Positions 8,813 to 52,400 of a stretch of DNA of 64,000 bases are shown in pieces. Origin of the DNA: Escherichia coli (lineage in GTDB: Bacteria > Pseudomonadota > Gammaproteobacteria > Enterobacterales > Enterobacteriaceae); assembly GCF_002854065.1 (NCBI RefSeq), contig NZ_CP024147.1. The stretch is one strand, 5' to 3'. A program made the position numbers and the translations under genes. Each line of letters opens with the position of its first letter. Positions within the stretch are counted from its first letter, which is position 1. The notes under the pieces are model-generated. The model was not told where the DNA came from, searched no databases, and saw nothing but the letters and a program-made list of their open reading frames with translations.

Positions 8813-10300
8813 ATGAATTTTCATCATCTGGCTTACTGGCAGGATAAAGCGTTAAGTCTCGCCATTGAAACCCGCTTATTTATTAACGGTGAATATACTG
8901 CTGCGGCGGAAAATGAAACCTTCGAAACATCCGATCCGGTTACCCAGGCACCGCTGGCGAAAATTGCCCGCGGCAAGAGCGTCGATATCGACCGTGCGGT
9001 GAGCGCAGCACGCGGCGTATTTGAACGCGGCGACTGGTCACTCTCTTCTCCGGCTAAACGTAAAGCGGTACTGAATAAACTCGCCGATTTAATGGAAGCC
9101 AACGCCGAAGAGCTGGCACTGCTGGAAACTCTCGACACCGGCAAACCGATTCGTCACAGTCTGCGTGATGATATTCCCGGCGCGGCGCGCGCCATTCGCT
9201 GGTACGCCGAAGCGATCGACAAAGTGTATGGCGAAGTGGCGACCACCAGTAGCCATGAGCTGGCGATGATCGTGCGTGAACCGGTCGGCGTAATTGCCGC
9301 CATCGTGCCGTGGAACTTCCCGCTGCTGCTGACTTGCTGGAAACTCGGCCCGGCGCTGGCGGCGGGAAACAGCGTGATTCTAAAACCGTCTGAAAAATCA
9401 CCGCTCAGTGCGATTCGTCTCGCCGGGCTGGCGAAAGAAGCAGGTCTGCCGGATGGCGTACTGAACGTAGTAACGGGTTTTGGTCATGAAGCGGGGCAGG
9501 CGCTGTCGCGTCATAACGATATCGATGCCATCGCCTTTACCGGTTCAACCCGTACCGGGAAACAGCTGCTGAAAGATGCGGGCGACAGCAACATGAAACG
9601 CGTCTGGCTGGAAGCGGGCGGCAAAAGCGCCAACATCGTTTTCGCTGACTGCCCGGATTTGCAACAGGCGGCAAGCGCCACCGCAGCAGGCATCTTCTAC
9701 AACCAGGGTCAGGTGTGCATCGCCGGAACGCGCCTGTTGCTGGAAGAGAGCATAGCTGATGAATTCTTAGCCCTGTTAAAACAGCAGGCGCAAAACTGGC
9801 AGCCGGGCCATCCACTTGATCCCGCAACCACCATGGGCACCTTAATCGACTGCGCCCACGCCGACTCGGTCCATAGCTTTATTCGGGAAGGCGAAAGCAA
9901 AGGGCAACTGTTGTTGGATGGCCGTAACGCCGGGCTGGCTGCCGCCATCGGCCCGACCATCTTTGTGGATGTAGACCCGAATGCGTCCTTAAGCCGCGAA
10001 GAGATTTTCGGTCCGGTGCTGGTTGTCACGCGTTTCACATCAGAAGAACAGGCGCTACAGCTTGCCAACGACAGCCAGTACGGCCTTGGCGCGGCGGTAT
10101 GGACGCGCGACCTCTCCCGCGCGCACCGCCTGAGCCGACGCCTGAAAGCCGGTTCCGTCTTCGTCAATAACTACAACGACGGCGATATGACCGTGCCGTT
10201 TGGCGGCTATAAGCAGAGCGGCAACGGTCGCGACAAATCCCTGCATGCCCTTGAAAAATTCACCGAACTGAAAACCATCTGGATAAGCCTGGAGGCCTGA
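8813..10300 (+). CDS. puuC: Gamma-glutamyl-gamma-aminobutyraldehyde dehydrogenase PuuC
   Basis: ORF track 8717..10300; start trimmed to MNFHHLAYWQDKA (495 aa); aldehyde dehydrogenase family. Confidence 0.9.
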   Translation: MNFHHLAYWQDKALSLAIETRLFINGEYTAAAENETFETSDPVTQAPLAKIARGKSVDIDRAVSAARGVFERGDWSLSSPAKRKAVLNKLADLMEANAEELALLETLDTGKPIRHSLRDDIPGAARAIRWYAEAIDKVYGEVATTSSHELAMIVREPVGVIAAIVPWNFPLLLTCWKLGPALAAGNSVILKPSEKSPLSAIRLAGLAKEAGLPDGVLNVVTGFGHEAGQALSRHNDIDAIAFTGSTRTGKQLLKDAGDSNMKRVWLEAGGKSANIVFADCPDLQQAASATAAGIFYNQGQVCIAGTRLLLEESIADEFLALLKQQAQNWQPGHPLDPATTMGTLIDCAHADSVHSFIREGESKGQLLLDGRNAGLAAAIGPTIFVDVDPNASLSREEIFGPVLVVTRFTSEEQALQLANDSQYGLGAAVWTRDLSRAHRLSRRLKAGSVFVNNYNDGDMTVPFGGYKQSGNGRDKSLHALEKFTELKTIWISLEA

Positions 10301-43855: not shown

Positions 43856-44122
43856 ATGCGAGCAGCGTTTTGGGTAGGGTGTGCCGCTTTATTGTTGTCG
43901 GCGTGTAGTAGTGAGCCTGTTCAGCAGGCGACTGCGGCGCACGTAGCGCCAGGTTTAAAAGCGTCGATGTCCAGTAGTGGAGAAGCAAATTGTGCAATGA
44001 TCGGCGGTTCGCTTTCTGTTGCCCGTCAACTGGATGGTACGGCGATTGGGATGTGTGCATTACCCAACGGCAAACGCTGTAGCGAACAGTCACTTGCCGC
44101 CGGGAGCTGTGGCAGCTATTAA
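43856..44122 (+). CDS. ydbJ: Lipoprotein YdbJ (DUF333)
   Basis: ORF track 88 aa; lipobox LLSAC. Confidence 0.85.
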   Translation: MRAAFWVGCAALLLSACSSEPVQQATAAHVAPGLKASMSSSGEANCAMIGGSLSVARQLDGTAIGMCALPNGKRCSEQSLAAGSCGSY

Positions 44123-44541
44123 TTCATTAAATCCGCCAGCTTATAAGTTAATGTCTGTTTCGCGGTCGCCAGCGTTAACTGGTTCGCGGTCAGATCCACT
44201 TGTGCACCTTCTTTCAGCATTTCGCTAATGGTGTTATCGAGTTCATTAAGCTGCGGGTTAGCGCACATCATACGGGTCATTGCCAGCCCTTTGGCTGTCA
44301 GTTCACCATTAGACAGTTTGCCTTCACCGCTAAAGCGGTTACACATGCTGCCGGAAATCATCATTTTTTCACCAAAGCTGATTTCTGGCGGATTTTTATC
44401 GCTGGTCACGGGCTTACCGTTTACGCTTTCCAGCACAAAGCGATGATGCTGTAGCTGTTCTGGCGTAACAGCAATTTTGTCATTACTTACACATCCCGCC
44501 ATCAGCAGGCTTAGCGCAACAAACGCGGCTACTTTCTTCAT
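44119..44541 (-). CDS. hslJ: Heat-inducible lipoprotein HslJ
   Basis: ORF track 44119..44553; start trimmed to MKKVAAFVALSLLMAGC (140 aa); lipobox. Confidence 0.9.
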   Translation of the reverse strand: MKKVAAFVALSLLMAGCVSNDKIAVTPEQLQHHRFVLESVNGKPVTSDKNPPEISFGEKMMISGSMCNRFSGEGKLSNGELTAKGLAMTRMMCANPQLNELDNTISEMLKEGAQVDLTANQLTLATAKQTLTYKLADLMN

Positions 44542-44651
44542 TGTGGTTCTCAATTACAGTTTCTGACTCAGGACTATTTTAAGAATAGAGAATGAAAGGT
44601 CATTGGGGATTATCTGAATCAGCTCCCCTGGATTGCAGGGGAGCGGCAAGA

Positions 44652-45641
44652 TTAAACCAGTTCGTTCGGGCAGGTTTCACCTTTTTCCAGATTGCTTAAG
44701 TTTTGCAGCGTAGTCTGAGAAATACTGGTCAGAGCTTCTGCTGTCAGGAATGCCTGGTGCCCGGTAAACAGCACGTTGTGGCAGGCGGACAGGCGACGGA
44801 ATACGTCATCCTGGATCACGTCGTTGGATTTATCTTCAAAGAACAGATCGCGTTCGTTCTCATACACGTCCATACCCAACGAACCAATTTTCTGATTTTT
44901 CAGCGCTTCAATTGCTGCCTGAGAATCAATCAATGCACCGCGACTGGTATTGACGATCATCACGCCATTTTTCATCTGATCGAAGGCGGCTTCGTTCAAC
45001 AGATGGTAGTTTTCCGGTGTCAGCGGGCAGTGCAGAGAGATAACGTCTGATTCAGAGAACAGGGTTGGCAGATCGACATACTCCACACCGAGTTCCAGCG
45101 CCGCTGCACTTGGATACGGATCGAACGCCAGCAGACGCATACCAAAACCTTTCAGAATGCGCAGCATCGCCACACCGATTTTACCGGTACCGATAACGCC
45201 TGCCGTTTTGCCATACATAGTAAAGCCAGTCAGACCTTCTAGAGAGAAGTTGGCGTCACGGGTACGCTGATACGCGCGGTGAATACGGCGGTTCAGCGTC
45301 ATCATCATACCGATGGCGTGTTCAGCAACGGCCTCTGGATCATAGGCTGGAACACGGACTACTTTCAGCCCCAGTTCTTTTGCCGCGTCAAGGTCGACGT
45401 TATTGAAACCGGCACAGCGCAGGGCGATATATTTAACGCCGTGCTTTTTCAGCTCTTCCAGCACCGGGCGGCTGCCGTCATCGTTTACGAAAATACATAC
45501 TGCTTCGCAGCCATTGGCAGTTTTAGCGGTTTTTTCCGTCAGCAGAAAGTCAAAAAATTCCAGCTCAAAGCCAAAGGACTCGTTCACCTGTTGCAGGTAC
45601 TTCTTGTCGTACTGTTTTGTGCTATAAACGGCGAGTTTCAT
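44652..45641 (-). CDS. ldhA: Fermentative D-lactate dehydrogenase LdhA
   Basis: ORF track 329 aa; D-2-hydroxyacid dehydrogenase NAD motif GVIGTGKIG. Confidence 0.95.
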   Translation of the reverse strand: MKLAVYSTKQYDKKYLQQVNESFGFELEFFDFLLTEKTAKTANGCEAVCIFVNDDGSRPVLEELKKHGVKYIALRCAGFNNVDLDAAKELGLKVVRVPAYDPEAVAEHAIGMMMTLNRRIHRAYQRTRDANFSLEGLTGFTMYGKTAGVIGTGKIGVAMLRILKGFGMRLLAFDPYPSAAALELGVEYVDLPTLFSESDVISLHCPLTPENYHLLNEAAFDQMKNGVMIVNTSRGALIDSQAAIEALKNQKIGSLGMDVYENERDLFFEDKSNDVIQDDVFRRLSACHNVLFTGHQAFLTAEALTSISQTTLQNLSNLEKGETCPNELV

Positions 45642-45848
45642 AAGACTTTCTCCAGTGATGTTGAATCACATTTAAGCTACTAAAAATATTTTACAAAATT
45701 TCAAATTTAATTGAAAGCTATGGCGATATTGAAAAATTCATCAACAACTATGCTTAGTGTAGGCGCAACCTTCAACTGAACGGTTAAACATGCCACAATA
45801 CCCGTATTGAATGCTTAATTTTTCGCTAAATCAGGATATTAACTACCC

Positions 45849-48488
45849 ATGCTGGGTAAATATAAAGCCGTTCTCGCGCTGTTATTACTGATTATTCTTG
45901 TGCCGTTGACGCTGCTGATGACGCTCGGGCTGTGGGTTCCCACGCTGGCGGGCATCTGGCTACCGCTCGGGACACGTATTGCATTAGATGAAAGCCCACG
46001 CATTACGCGTAAAGGTTTAATCATTCCCGATCTCCGTTATCTGGTGGGAGATTGTCAGCTTGCGCATATCACCAACGCCAGCCTTTCACATCCCAGCCGC
46101 TGGTTATTGAACGTCGGCACGGTAGAACTTGATTCTGCTTGTCTGGCGAAATTGCCGCAGACGGAGCAATCGCCAGCTGCTCCAAAAACCCTCGCGCAAT
46201 GGCAGTCCATGCTGCCTAACACCTGGATCAATATTGATAAACTGATTTTTTCTCCCTGGCAGGAATGGCAGGGAAAACTCTCTCTCGCATTAACCTCCGA
46301 TATCCAGCAACTGCGTTATCAGGGCGAAAAAGTTAAATTTCAAGGCCAGCTGAAAGGGCAACAACTTACAGTCAGCGAACTGGATGTCGTCGCGTTTGAA
46401 AATCAGCCGCCGGTTAAACTGGTGGGGGAATTTACTATGCCGCTAGTGCCGGATGGACTTCCTGTAAGTGGTCATGCTACTGCGACGTTAAACTTGCCGC
46501 AGGAACCGTCACTGGTAGATGCCGAGCTGGACTGGCAGGAAAATAGCGGGCAATTGATTGTGCTGGCACGGGATAACGGCGATCCGTTGCTCGATTTGCC
46601 GTGGCAAATTACGCGTCAACAATTGACCGTAAGCGATGGTCGCTGGAGCTGGCCGTATGCAGATTTTCCTTTGAGTGGCCGACTGGGTGTCAAAGTCGAC
46701 AACTGGCAGGCAGGGCTTGAGAACGCTCTGGTCAGCGGACGACTGAGTGTGCTGACCCAGGGGCAAGCGGGTAAGGGCAACGCGGTGCTTAATTTTGGCC
46801 CAGGAAAATTAAGCATGGATAACAGCCAGCTGCCTCTGCAGCTGACCGGTGAAGCGAAACAGGCGGACCTCATTTTATATGCCCGTTTACCTGCGCAGGT
46901 AAGTGGAAGTCTGTCTGACCCAACGCTGACCTTTGAGCCAGGCGCGTTACTTCGTTCAAAGGGAAGAGTCATCGATTCGCTGGACATCGATGAAATCCGC
47001 TGGCCTTTAGCGGGTGTAAAAGTCACCCAACGTGGTGTTGACGGACGTTTGCAGGCCATTTTGCAGGCGCATGAAAATGAACTGGGCGATTTCGTGCTGC
47101 ATATGGATGGGCTGGCGAATGATTTTCTCCCTGACGCTGGCCGCTGGCAGTGGCGCTACTGGGGAAAAGGGAGTTTTACACCGATGAATGCCACCTGGGA
47201 TGTCGCAGGAAAAGGTGAGTGGCATGACAGCACGATTACGCTGACCGATCTCTCCACCGGTTTCGACCAGTTACAATACGGTACGATGACGGTAGAAAAG
47301 CCGCGATTAATTCTCGACAAGCCCGTCGTCTGGGTACGTGACGCACAGCATCCCTCCTTCAGCGGCACGCTGTCACTGGACGCCGGGCAAACGCTGTTCA
47401 CTGGCGGCAGTGTGTTACCGCCATCAACCTTAAAATTTAGCGTCGATGGGCGCGATCCGACGTATTTCCTCTTTAAAGGCGATTTACATGCTGGTGAGAT
47501 TGGCCCGGTTCGGGTAAATGGTCGCTGGGACGGTATTCGTCTGCGCGGTAATGCCTGGTGGCCTAAACAATCACTGACTGTATTCCAGCCGCTGGTGCCA
47601 CCCGACTGGAAGATGAACTTACGCGATGGTGAACTGTATGCTCAGGTTGCATTTTCTGCTGCGCCTGAACAAGGATTCCGCGCGGGAGGGCACGGCGTGT
47701 TGAAAGGCGGTAGTGCCTGGATGCCAGATAATCAGGTTAACGGTGTCGATTTTGTCCTGCCTTTCCGTTTTGCCGATGGAGCCTGGCATCTGGGGACTCG
47801 CGGCCCCGTTACGTTGCGAATTGCCGAAGTGATTAATCTGGTGACAGCGAAAAATATTACGGCTGATTTGCAAGGGCGTTATCCGTGGACTGAAGAAGAA
47901 CCATTGCTGTTGACTGATGTTAGCGTCGATGTGTTAGGCGGTAACGTGCTGATGAAACAATTACGTATGCCGCAACATGACCCGGCGCTGTTGCGGCTGA
48001 ATAATCTCTCATCCAGCGAACTGGTTAGCGCCGTCAATCCGAAACAATTTGCCATGTCCGGGGCATTTAGTGGTGCATTGCCGTTATGGCTGAACAATGA
48101 AAAATGGATTGTCAAAGAGGGCTGGTTGGCAAACGCGGGGCCGATGACGCTGCGTCTGGATAAAGACACTGCAGATGCGGTGGCCAAAGACAATATGACC
48201 GCTGGAACTGCCATCAACTGGTTGCGTTATATGGAAATCAGTCGCTCATCAACAAGGATTAATTTAGATAATCTCGGTGTGTTAACCATGCAGGCCAACA
48301 TTTCGGGCACCAGTCGCGTCGATGGTAAAAGCGGTACGGTAAACCTTAATTATCACCATGAAGAGAATATTTTTACGTTATGGCGCAGTTTACGCTTTGG
48401 CGATAATCTCCAGGTATGGCTGGAGCAGAATGCCCAGCTACCGGAAACTGGCTGCCCATCAGGAAAAGAGTGTGAGGAAAAACAATGA
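45849..48488 (+). CDS. ydbH: AsmA-like large envelope protein YdbH
   Basis: ORF track 879 aa with N-terminal TM anchor; synteny. Confidence 0.9.
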   Translation: MLGKYKAVLALLLLIILVPLTLLMTLGLWVPTLAGIWLPLGTRIALDESPRITRKGLIIPDLRYLVGDCQLAHITNASLSHPSRWLLNVGTVELDSACLAKLPQTEQSPAAPKTLAQWQSMLPNTWINIDKLIFSPWQEWQGKLSLALTSDIQQLRYQGEKVKFQGQLKGQQLTVSELDVVAFENQPPVKLVGEFTMPLVPDGLPVSGHATATLNLPQEPSLVDAELDWQENSGQLIVLARDNGDPLLDLPWQITRQQLTVSDGRWSWPYADFPLSGRLGVKVDNWQAGLENALVSGRLSVLTQGQAGKGNAVLNFGPGKLSMDNSQLPLQLTGEAKQADLILYARLPAQVSGSLSDPTLTFEPGALLRSKGRVIDSLDIDEIRWPLAGVKVTQRGVDGRLQAILQAHENELGDFVLHMDGLANDFLPDAGRWQWRYWGKGSFTPMNATWDVAGKGEWHDSTITLTDLSTGFDQLQYGTMTVEKPRLILDKPVVWVRDAQHPSFSGTLSLDAGQTLFTGGSVLPPSTLKFSVDGRDPTYFLFKGDLHAGEIGPVRVNGRWDGIRLRGNAWWPKQSLTVFQPLVPPDWKMNLRDGELYAQVAFSAAPEQGFRAGGHGVLKGGSAWMPDNQVNGVDFVLPFRFADGAWHLGTRGPVTLRIAEVINLVTAKNITADLQGRYPWTEEEPLLLTDVSVDVLGGNVLMKQLRMPQHDPALLRLNNLSSSELVSAVNPKQFAMSGAFSGALPLWLNNEKWIVKEGWLANAGPMTLRLDKDTADAVAKDNMTAGTAINWLRYMEISRSSTRINLDNLGVLTMQANISGTSRVDGKSGTVNLNYHHEENIFTLWRSLRFGDNLQVWLEQNAQLPETGCPSGKECEEKQ

Positions 48489-48670
48489 AAATAGTGATAG
48501 CCGCGTTTGCGTCCTCTTTTATGTTGGTTGGTTGCACGCCTCGCATTGAAGTGGCTGCGCCGAAAGAGCCAATCACCATTAATATGAACGTTAAAATTGA
48601 GCATGAAATCATCATTAAAGCGGATAAGGACGTTGAAGACCTGCTCAAAACCCGTAGCGATCTATTTTGA
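48485..48670 (+). CDS. ynbE: Small lipoprotein YnbE
   Basis: ORF track 61 aa; lipobox LVGC; start overlaps ydbH stop. Confidence 0.85.
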   Translation: MKIVIAAFASSFMLVGCTPRIEVAAPKEPITINMNVKIEHEIIIKADKDVEDLLKTRSDLF

Positions 48671-48674
48671 GGTG

Positions 48675-49001
48675 ATGATGAAAAGAACATTACTCATAGC
48701 TGTATGGGCCATTGGCCTGATGAGCGACAGTGCAATGGCTTTAACCCTGAACGAAGCCAGAAGTCAGGGGCGGGTAGGTGAAACGCTTAACGGTTACCTG
48801 GTGGCGCTACAAACGGATGCCGAAACACAGGCATTAGTAAAAGATATTAATGAAGCTCGTAACCATAGTTATCAACAACTGGCAAAGCAAAATAATGTAT
48901 CCACTAAAGAGATAGCCAAACTGGCTGGACAAAAGCTTGTTGCTCGCGCGAAGTCGGGGCAATATGTTCAGGGAATTAATGGTAAATGGTTGCGCAAATA
49001 A
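48675..49001 (+). CDS. ydbL: Periplasmic protein YdbL (DUF1318)
   Basis: ORF track 48597..49001; start trimmed to MMKRTLLIAVWAIG (108 aa) with signal peptide. Confidence 0.85.
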   Translation: MMKRTLLIAVWAIGLMSDSAMALTLNEARSQGRVGETLNGYLVALQTDAETQALVKDINEARNHSYQQLAKQNNVSTKEIAKLAGQKLVARAKSGQYVQGINGKWLRK

Positions 49002-49408
49002 ATTATAGTTGGCTACAAAATGTATCTATTAATGATCTTTTACAGTATTTAAACTGACGTTAGCATGCTTAATTACCGTGGGTATTTCTACAAAAACCTT
49101 ATATATCCTTCCCTTAAATAACAAATCATTACCAATATATATGTAATCACAAAATATATATGCAGCGTCAATGAATTATTAGTGTGTTTTTGTTTTTTGT
49201 CGTTAATTTTTAGATTGAAGTGAGTTTTTTGTGGAATATAATTCCATCAACTGTTTTTTTGTATGCTTTTACTTGCCTGATTTTAATATTGATTTTGTGA
49301 ATTATATAAGCATTTCTTTATTGCTTATTTCACTATGAATATTTACTACGATTTATCTTCAAATTCTGCATGGCTTGTTACGCACGGTCTAGATCTAAGG
49401 AATTTTAT

Positions 49409-52400
49409 ATGCAAAGGAAAAAATTATTGTCTGTTTGTGTTGCCATGGCGTTAAGTAGCCAGACATGGGCTGCGGATACTTCAATACCCGACTCAACCGA
49501 AAAAACACGTAAGTCCAGTAAGATAACATGTCCGGCAAATATTCATTCCCTGAGCAAAGAGCAGCTAGAAAATTTATCCGCGGAGTGCAGAGAAAATAAA
49601 GATAGTGCAGTTTTACCATGGGCAGCTGCAGGTCTTGCTGCAGTAGCTACGGGAATTGCTATATATACCTTAAGTGACGATGACAATCACCACCATAATA
49701 ACTCCCCAGTTCCGGATGATGGCGGTGATACGCCAGTTCCGCCAGACGACGGCGGTGATACGCCGGTTCCGCCAGATGACGGCGGTGATACGCCGGTTCC
49801 GCCAGATGACGGCGGTGATACGCCAGTTCCGCCAGATGACGGCGGTGATACGCCAGTTCCGCCAGATGACGGCGATGATACGCCGGTTCCGCCAGATGAC
49901 GGCGGTGATACGCCAGTTCCGCCAGATGACGGCGGTGATACGCCAGTTCCGCCAGATGACGGCGGTGATACGCCGGTTCCACCAGATGATGGCGGTGATA
50001 CGCCAGTTCCAGACGACGGCGGTGATACGCCTGTTCCGCCAGACGATGGTGGCGATACCCCGGTTAAACACGATCCTGTCGTCTATAAAAATGACGTAAC
50101 CTGGGATCAGGACGCGAAAACCGTCAAAATTCGCGAAACCACCTTTACCTACAGCCAAAATGCCGATGGGAGTTACACCTTAACCGCGCCTGATGGCCTG
50201 ACGACGATAGTCAAGGGCTGGACAGTCCATGACGACAGCAACACCGTCATCTTTGATGGCGTAAATACGGCAGGTGGCATCACCTGGAGCTACGACGATG
50301 ATGGGCTCATCCATATCACTAAAGAGGCCGGTGTCGTTGTTGATGGCACAACCGGAACTGCGATTGATTTTGGTAATGCGATCATCACCGATCAGGGCGG
50401 CAATACGGCGCTGAATGGCGGTACTGTCATGACGGTTGAGGGTGACAACATCACCCTCAACAACGACGGTAAAACGACCGCCATCGGCGAGGGTTCGGTC
50501 GTTGGTATCCTTACTGGTGACGATATCACTATCAATAACAACGGCGAGACGGAAGTTGACGGCGGTACCGCAGTAATCATCAATGGCGATAATGCTACGC
50601 TGAACACTGCGGGCGACTCGACCATCACCAATGGTGGTACGGGTAGCCTTATCAATGGCGATAATGCGCGGGTCGATAATCAAGGTACCATGAGCGTTGA
50701 CGGTGAGAATTCCACTGGCTCGAAAATTGTCGGTGACGGTGCCACCATCAAACAGGAAGGCGACTTATACGTAAGCGGTGGTGCGCACGGTATTGACGTT
50801 GACGGCAATGATACGTTCGTTAGCAACAAAGGTAATATTACGGTCATCGAAGATAACTCTATTGGCATGCTGCTTGATGGTGATGGCGTCAGCGTGATCA
50901 ACATGGGCGACCTCAATGTTGGTCAGGCCGCAGCGGGTGAAAATGCCATTGGCATTCAGATCGACGGTGATAATGCGACATTTGTTAACGTTGGTGATAT
51001 TTCCGCGACCAATGCCGGAACCGGTGTCAGCGTTGCTGGGGATAAAGCTAATATTTCACTCGCGGGTGGGTTAGACGTTGGGGATTTCTCCACCGGTCTT
51101 GATGTCTCTGGCAATAATAACAACATGACGCTGGCGACTTATGAGCTGAATGTGACAGGGCAAAAAGCGACGGGTGTTAATGTTTCGGGTGATGGCAATA
51201 CGATTGAAATCGCAGGCAGCATTCTGGTTGATAAAGATCAGAAAGCCGATAATGCGCAACCTTACTTCTTTAATCCCTCAACCGGCGTAAATATCAGCGG
51301 TAATAACAATGACGTCACGCTGGATGGTCAGTTAACCGTTGTTGCTGATAGCGAAACCACTACGCGTTCCTATGCAAGTTACGACGGTGCTCAGGAGCAC
51401 ATTGCGGGTATTGTTATTGCTGGCGATGACAATACCTTCACGCTTAATGGCGGTGTCCATTTTGTCGGTGAAAAAAATGTCATGGATGATGGCTCAAAAC
51501 CTGCCGCATCTCGTCGTGGTATCGGAGATACACCGCTTATGAGCGTTGATGGGCATTCCTCAGTCTACCTCAATGGTGAGTCAACCATCAGCGGTGAGTT
51601 CCCGCTGGGTTTCGAAAATCTCATTCAACTGAGTAATGGCGCGGAGCTGGAGATTGGCGCTGACGCAACGTTTGATATGAGTGATGTGGATTCTTTCACT
51701 TATTATTATCGTGTAGCGTTATCCACTATTAGTATTGATTATGGTGCGAAGGCGACAAACAACGGTGAAGTGGAACTGAAAAATATCGGTTTTGCGGCTG
51801 CCTGGAATAAAGATTCAACGGTAATCAATAACGGATCCATTGGCCTGGCGATGTACGATTTTGGTACCGACCCGGCACCAAAAGTCTTTGACGTTGAATA
51901 CGGTGGGATTGGCGTTAACAATGGTACCATGACCACCAAAATGATGAATCAGCACAGTGTGCTGAATTATCCGGCAGAGTGGAACTTGTCTGATGGTACC
52001 TCTTTCAATAACAAGGCATTAGGGCTGACAGGTATGCTTGCCAGCTACTCGTCATCCATTCTGAACGGCGAAACGGGCATTATTGATATGTATGGCCGTG
52101 GCAGTGTAGGGATGCTAGCCATCGATAAATCAACCGCGGATAACGAAGGGCAAATCACCCTGGATACGCTGTGGGTTGATGAAAATGATGAAACATCGCT
52201 GCGTAATAATGTTGCAAATAGCACGGCGAAAGATTTCGGTGTGGGAATGGCTTCAGGTACCGATGCCTATAATGGGGCATTAACTAAAGCCACGGCAACC
52301 AACCACGAGAATGGTGTGATTACTGTCTACAACGCCGGTGCGGGGATGGCGGCGTATGGGAATACTAATACGGTCATTAACCAGGGAACCATCAACCTGG

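Follow-up and report, generated by a model that had tools for sequence, protein, structure and literature searches.

An AT-rich spacer between ydbL and ydbA as the probable ydbA leader of a paa-less haplotype apparently exchanged between Escherichia species

Surface-antigen loci in Escherichia coli undergo allelic replacement by homologous recombination in conserved flanks. The interval between ydbL and ydbA considered here has already been recognized as the site of a presence/absence polymorphism of a catabolic gene island, and the type of junction described below is likewise already known. In the accessible parts of the two publications concerned, the paa locus is called a "region of genomic heterogeneity" between ydbH-ynbE-ydbL and ynbC, with ydbA involved (PMC4951805), and O157:H7 isolates are reported as tynA-negative, with none of 28 tynA-positive (PMC4640556). 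In K-12, the spacer between paaY and ydbA is one of 78 "promoter islands" and is bound by H-NS in two ChIP data sets (PMC3661553); ydbA transcription is also increased in an rpoZ mutant (PMC5811629).

The K-12 MG1655 ydbL-ydbA interval contains feaR, feaB, tynA, paaZ, paaA-K, paaX, paaY, and ynbG, in all 19,185 bp, so the gene order given in a preliminary description of the present sequence, with a fea-tynA-paa block between ydbL and ydbA, is correct for that strain. The K-12 island has a GC content of 51.5%, equal to that of the genome, and its annotation includes catabolic and regulatory genes only, with no integrase or mobility genes. The same description held that the island is absent from the sequence studied here, and in the window (the whole 64-kb stretch of E. 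coli DNA that was analyzed), spacer included, there is indeed no fea or paa gene or remnant of one. A tblastn search of the spacer and 50 bp on either side with all 18 island proteins gave nothing better than E = 0.14, and a blastn-short comparison of the spacer with the K-12 island gave two 12-mers only (E = 0.38). The sole feaB match in the window is an aldehyde-dehydrogenase ORF at 8876-10285, 41% identical to FeaB, which is a paralogue and not part of a fea-paa island.

The window has the following features at and around the junction, where E1V33 is an unclassified Escherichia and positions are those of the window:

45849-48488, + strand: ydbH, about 99% identical to K-12 until about 48050, with its last 400 bp or so in the divergent block
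48050-48113, no strand: left boundary zone of the divergent haplotype, K-12-like to its left and E1V33-like to its right
48485-48670, + strand: ynbE (YnbE-like lipoprotein), within the divergent block
48678-49001, + strand: ydbL (DUF1318), 107 aa, a divergent allele
49002-49408, + strand: spacer, read as the ydbA upstream/leader region and collinear with the E. whittamii spacer
49215-49242, + strand: candidate sigma-70 promoter, TTGAAG-16 bp-TATAAT, a 10/12 match, with the -10 TATAAT at 49237-49242
49254-49260, + strand: variable T-run, downstream of the candidate -10 and outside the promoter spacer
49397-49401, + strand: Shine-Dalgarno sequence AAGGA, read from the sequence, 7 nt before the ydbA ATG
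49409-55273, + strand: ydbA, intact; a BigA/YdbA-type autotransporter of 1954 aa that has a signal peptide, a BigA_N domain, and a BigA_beta domain
53412-55400, no strand: right zone of recovering identity to K-12 (from about 80% to at least 95%), gradual and mosaic, with no sharp breakpoint

The spacer consists of 407 non-coding bp between the ydbL stop codon, which ends at 49001, and the ydbA ATG at 49409; RefSeq places the start at this codon too in strain A16, 99.9% identical to the window in this region. With 27.0% GC (73% A+T), against 50.1% for the 64-kb window, it is the lowest-GC stretch and the sole place in the window where 407 bp of at most 30% GC are found together, and six homopolymer runs of 5-7 nt lie within it. 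The preliminary description of an AT-rich, homopolymer-rich junction of about 400 bp between ydbL and ydbA is borne out by these figures, and its coordinates are exact. At 407 bp, the spacer is also longer than the minimum of 300 bp of strongly elevated A+T that marks a "promoter island". The variable T-run is T6 in E1V33, T7 in both the window and A16, and T8 in O157:H7, all of which carry this haplotype, and the O157:H7 spacer also has a 5-bp TAATG duplication at 49029 (window coordinate).

Searches for other kinds of element gave little. A repeat search within and around the spacer found only weak repeats at chance level and no flanking pair; no Rfam family was found in 48000-50500 (E ≤ 1), and no tRNA or tmRNA gene in a tRNA scan of 44000-60000. 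The small ORFs listed within the spacer are all short and unsupported. In RNA folding, neither the ydbL-proximal part nor the putative leader gave a structure above shuffled sequences (z = +0.98 and -0.10, respectively). The first of these parts, 49002-49130, has no + strand intrinsic terminator after ydbL, so read-through from the ydbH-ynbE-ydbL operon into the ydbA leader is possible; transcription of the operon may run into the leader or may end by another mechanism.

Comparison with other genomes ties the spacer to ydbA. In E. whittamii, a homologous spacer of 404 bp comes directly after ydbL and aligns collinearly with that of the window (local alignment z = 25), at 50% identity over the left 112 bp and 62% over the remaining 295 bp. 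Beyond it lie the first 35 codons of ydbA (74% amino acid identity; L007 10729-10833) and then pdxI. This ydbA stump is a deletion remnant, and together with the collinear spacer it argues that the order ydbL-spacer-ydbA, without paa, is old within the genus. A homologue search found YdbA homologues only in E. coli, in E1V33, and as the E. whittamii stump. Upstream of each of the ydbA alleles examined lies a separate AT-rich tract, about 330-480 bp long and with 25-32% GC; those of the other alleles are:

K-12, paaY-ydbA: 330 bp, 25.2% GC
NQ3: 327 bp, 28.7% GC
M00057: 425 bp, 28.9% GC
GF43: 483 bp, 31.7% GC

In K-12, the tract sits to the right of the island, adjoining ydbA. The AT-rich tract thus travels with ydbA, as would be expected of a leader or promoter region and not of a scar or an attachment site. 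The spacer in the window would then be the regulatory and leader DNA that natively lies 5' of one particular allele of ydbA.

The candidate promoter has counterparts in two diverged homologues of the spacer. The aligned hexamers are TTGAAC-16-TATATT in E. whittamii and TTGAAT-16-TATAAA in M00057-type E. coli, so that the -35, the -10, and the 16-bp spacing are kept across three spacers, although the promoter spacer and its surroundings have diverged, the other two being otherwise only 46-62% identical to that of the window there. This conserved footprint is the main argument that a real ydbA promoter lies here; its transcripts would start at about 49249 and have a leader of about 160 nt. The earlier proposal of a promoter region for ydbA is reasonable on these grounds, although promoter-like sites as such are not above what the composition gives, with four in 48600-49800 compared to 4.0 ± 1.9 in dinucleotide-preserving shuffles and so no excess density. 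A literature search found no data on the start of ydbA transcription in EHEC, and nothing usable on strain E1V33. H-NS binding is expected of DNA with such an AT-rich composition, and for the spacer in the window it is plausible. Four matches to the H-NS motif TCGATAAATT, with two mismatches each, were found in the spacer, but are explained by its composition; over the whole window, the TCGATAAATT scan gave 90 matches compared to 73 ± 8.5 expected. Overall, the ydbA promoter most likely lies in the tract, which, judging by composition, is probably also coated and silenced by H-NS.

Divergence from K-12 extends well beyond the spacer. The window is about 99% identical to K-12 until about 48097, within ydbH, then 82-86% identical through the 3' end of ydbH and ynbE, and 72-80% (sliding) in ydbL, where the alignment breaks off at 48999. 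Beyond it, the spacer and roughly the first 4 kb of ydbA, which encode the passenger domain, are either unalignable to K-12 or about 70% identical. A robust alignment returns at 53412, at about 80%, and identities of at least 95% are reached only by about 54500-55400. On the left, the drop from about 99% to 72-86% at about 48050-48113 places the boundary within ydbH, a conserved gene; strain A16 has a different mosaic at this boundary, which indicates a later recombination. An alignment to K-12 had been suggested as a way to define breakpoints at the junction. It defines the zones listed above, and gives no breakpoints at the nucleotide level because the spacers are not homologous by either BLAST or Smith-Waterman alignment with shuffled controls: the latter gave z = -0.3 for the K-12 ydbL-feaR spacer and z = 1.5 for the paaY-ydbA spacer.

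The close counterpart of this block is found in E1V33, which is 84-90% identical to the window until about 48150, then about 100% identical to the end of its contig at 49770. In 46300-48040 (ydbH), K-12 is the nearer of the two to the window (98.8% identity, with E1V33 at 87.6%), while in 48113-48670 (the 3' end of ydbH and ynbE) E1V33 is the nearer (99.5%, with K-12 at 84.8%). The ydbL of the window is 75.0% identical to that of K-12 in DNA sequence (73% in amino acids), and 99.4% in DNA sequence to that of E1V33. Between 48170 and 49700, the window and E1V33 differ by seven substitutions and two indels in 1531 bp; over the same range the E. coli carriers of the haplotype are 0-7 substitutions apart, with E1V33 slightly an outlier. 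The left flank of E1V33 is thus at inter-species distance (87.6%), while the block is 99.4-99.5% identical. Against E. whittamii, the block in both E1V33 and the window is at 87%, a normal inter-species distance, with the E1V33 flank at 88.5%. To the right, the E1V33 contig stops at 49770 within the ydbA repeats, short of any second boundary that the shared block may have, and identity to K-12 recovers only gradually, over 53412-55400.

We consider that these observations are best explained overall, with fair confidence, by a ydbA leader that lies inside a paa-less haplotype exchanged by recombination. The divergent haplotype spans about 48050 to about 54500, from the last 400 bp or so of ydbH through ynbE, ydbL, and the spacer into the ydbA passenger, most of which it includes, and the locus would have been exchanged between Escherichia species through homologous recombination in ydbH on the left and, on the right, in the conserved 3' portion of ydbA. 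The island would then be missing here by way of a paa-less version of the whole locus, and not by local excision. Since the left boundary relative to K-12 coincides with the boundary relative to E1V33, a single import into E. coli is suggested; on parsimony, E. coli would be the recipient and a cryptic Escherichia lineage akin to E1V33 the donor. The chances are about even that the O157:H7/O55:H7-type lineages and the window strain lost phenylethylamine and phenylacetate catabolism through one such inter-species import and not through deletion, possibly with selection for a new YdbA surface variant and loss of the island by hitch-hiking.

Arrangements at this locus were counted in 5426 complete E. 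coli genomes. The K-12-type ydbL-feaR junction is found in 3294 and the window-type junction in 373, mostly at an identity of at least 99% and including O157:H7 and O55:H7. Paa-less junctions of other types are less frequent, with 142 genomes of the M00057 type and three of the GF43 type; judging from sampled rows, most of the remaining genomes appear to be in-situ deletion variants. When a YdbL alignment was used to scan one genome per species, 80 loci were found. The order ldhA-ydbH-ynbE-ydbL is conserved out to Serratia and Erwinia, and the next gene after ydbL varies. Many Citrobacter and Salmonella arizonae have ynbA there, and E. albertii and C. amalonaticus have pdxI. In Citrobacter spp., Pseudocitrobacter, Silvania, Leclercia, a Pluralibacter MAG, and a Klebsiella MAG, ydbL is followed at a distance of about 7 bp by feaR-feaB-tynA(-paaZ-paaA), and feaR lies within about 80 bp of ydbL in Cedecea and Enterobacter sp. 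Ag1. With feaR abutting ydbL in Citrobacter spp. and at least seven other Enterobacteriaceae genera, this adjacency is widespread and probably old.

Within E. coli, ydbL itself exists as at least four deep alleles (window 48678-49001; L001 5881-6207; L003 8967-9290; L005 8968-9291). YdbL of the other E. coli types is 68-78% identical in amino acids to that of the window, and the K-12 and GF43 proteins are 62% identical to each other, an unusually high divergence within a species. In a neighbour-joining tree, GF43 ydbL falls outside all other Escherichia alleles; M00057 ydbL is a mosaic with a K-12-like 5' half. A cryptic-clade genome labelled E. coli (L008) has a ydbL of the window class together with the island, so that ydbL class and island presence are not strictly linked. 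Co-import of the K-12-class ydbL with the island, from a genus with the ydbL-feaR arrangement, was considered and rejected: K-12 YdbL is no closer to such genera (55-69% amino acid identity) than is that of the window, and L008 is a counterexample.

The other end of the locus is also variable. In the 5' part of ydbA in the window, a 30-bp tandem repeat with 11.8 copies (49715-50065) encodes a proline/aspartate-rich (P)PDDGGDTPV array; YdbA ranges from 1901 to 1961 aa across carriers, and it is in this repeat region that the E1V33 contig breaks. Elsewhere, ydbA is present as two CDS in O157:H7 DEC4E (L086 8716-11751 and 11971-14430) and is interrupted by IS2 and IS30 in K-12. One genome (GCA_052907965.1), 99.98% identical to the window until 49658, has an IS1 at about codon 84 of ydbA (L090 10982-11750), followed directly by ynbD-azoR-hrpA-like genes, so that most of ydbA, pdxI, ydbD, and ynbA-C have been lost in an IS1-associated deletion. 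A ydbA CDS of about 8.6 kb in NZ_CP024720.1 (L004 10371-18288), and those in H138 and H140, are named "EntS/YbdA MFS transporter" in RefSeq, in what looks like an annotation mix-up between ydbA and ybdA. Further downstream in the window, ydbD is interrupted by an IS1 of 768 bp (57716-58483; its ends read GGTGATGCTGCC... and ...GGAGTCATTACC), which has given rise to a 9-bp target duplication, GTCACAAGC. This copy is absent from K-12, A16, and O157:H7, and is found in the same place in GCA_900449015.1 (L094), which is 99.956% identical to the window over 20.3 kb; the window thus belongs to the lineage of that genome.

The spacer could also be seen as an ancestral unoccupied site, with the island inserted in the lineage leading to K-12-like E. 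coli and the AT-rich tract as an insertion hotspot, a role that the preliminary description had thought plausible. The part of that proposal that holds is the variability of the locus: the interval after ydbL differs both across genera (ynbA, pdxI, fea-paa, and others) and within E. coli, where several paa-less arrangements coexist, and E1V33, E. whittamii, and E. albertii are all without the island here. As an empty target site, however, the tract has none of the usual marks. No tRNA gene or att core, flanking direct repeat, or scar was found, the K-12 island has neither an annotated integrase or other mobility gene nor a deviant composition, its GC content being that of the genome, and there is no definable breakpoint, the window spacer being homologous to neither K-12 spacer (z ≤ 1.5), so that an insertion point cannot be mapped. 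The age and spread of the ydbL-feaR adjacency across genera, and the pairing of a window-class ydbL with the island in L008, also argue against this account, and we regard it as unlikely.

The near-identity to E1V33 could in principle have another origin, either a chimeric E1V33 assembly that includes E. coli reads or a transfer from E. coli to E1V33; the haplotype would then be an old E. coli polymorphism. Only one cryptic-clade contig has the block, and it ends in a repeat, as is typical of assembly breaks; E1V33 is also only 7-10 substitutions from the E. coli carriers in 1.5 kb. Against this, the switch in E1V33 (about 48113-48150) falls within about 100 bp of the point where the window departs from K-12, which would have to be a coincidence, and the block is as far from E. 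whittamii (87%) as is normal between species, and much as the E1V33 flank is (88.5%). Both versions seem very unlikely. A third donor is conceivable as the source of the shared block.

Recent deletion of the island in situ in this E. coli lineage, with the tract as what remained, is hardly credible and largely refuted. Such deletions have arisen independently in E. coli, as feaR'::paaY' of the NQ3/ST131 type, as feaR'::paaX' in E371, and in shorter forms in the strains LF82 and Nissle, but the known cases can be recognized by their gene stubs and retain a ydbL of the K-12 type (about 96% identical in DNA sequence where ynbE-ydbL-feaR' can be matched). The window has a ydbL only 75% identical to that of K-12, with divergent DNA reaching some 900 bp leftward and 4-5 kb rightward, no stub or other remnant of the bordering genes in the spacer (all tblastn E > 0.1), and a block that another species shares at 99.5% identity.

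The junction in the window is the ordinary state of a well-sampled E. coli haplotype. If it arose by recombination as proposed, it illustrates that a metabolic cluster can be lost when an island-free allele from another species is swapped in by way of homologous flanks. Several very deep alleles are also present in the ydbL-ydbA interval, with YdbL proteins differing by up to 38% in amino acids within the species. Both points are relevant to how "gene loss" is read in pangenome studies, and to the use of tynA and paa as lineage markers. The identity of the block across species and the E. whittamii spacer are a modest evolutionary refinement, and not a new kind of element or mechanism.

Of the described systems, the published feaRB-tynA-paa polymorphism is the same in locus and flanks, and the junction in the window is of the type found in O157:H7 and O55:H7. 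The accessible parts of the papers concerned (PMC4640556, PMC4951805) deal with gene content only; the divergent flanks, the identity with a cryptic species, and the E. whittamii spacer were not found in those parts. The in-situ deletions (ST131/NQ3 feaR'::paaY', E371 feaR'::paaX') have in common with the window the loss of phenylethylamine and phenylacetate catabolism between ydbL and ydbA, and differ in their gene stubs and K-12-type ydbL, neither of which is present here. The K-12 paaY/ydbA promoter island (Panyukov and Ozoline, 2013, PMC3661553, entry 1463061_385) lies immediately upstream of ydbA, as does the spacer in the window, and the two are alike in kind (330 compared to 407 bp, 25.2% compared to 27.0% GC). 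The K-12 tract follows paaY and not ydbL, however, and has no detectable homology to the window spacer (z = 1.5); the H-NS ChIP data thus come from a non-homologous K-12 counterpart, and the sites in the window are not enriched beyond composition. Allelic replacement at surface-antigen loci (O-antigen/rfb and autotransporter loci) differs in that the exchange in the window also changes 19 kb of metabolic genes, and selection on YdbA would have to be presumed. The likeness lies in the hypervariable ydbA passenger, set in an abruptly divergent block with conserved bounds, and in the coexistence of several deep alleles (window-, K-12-, M00057-, and GF43-type).
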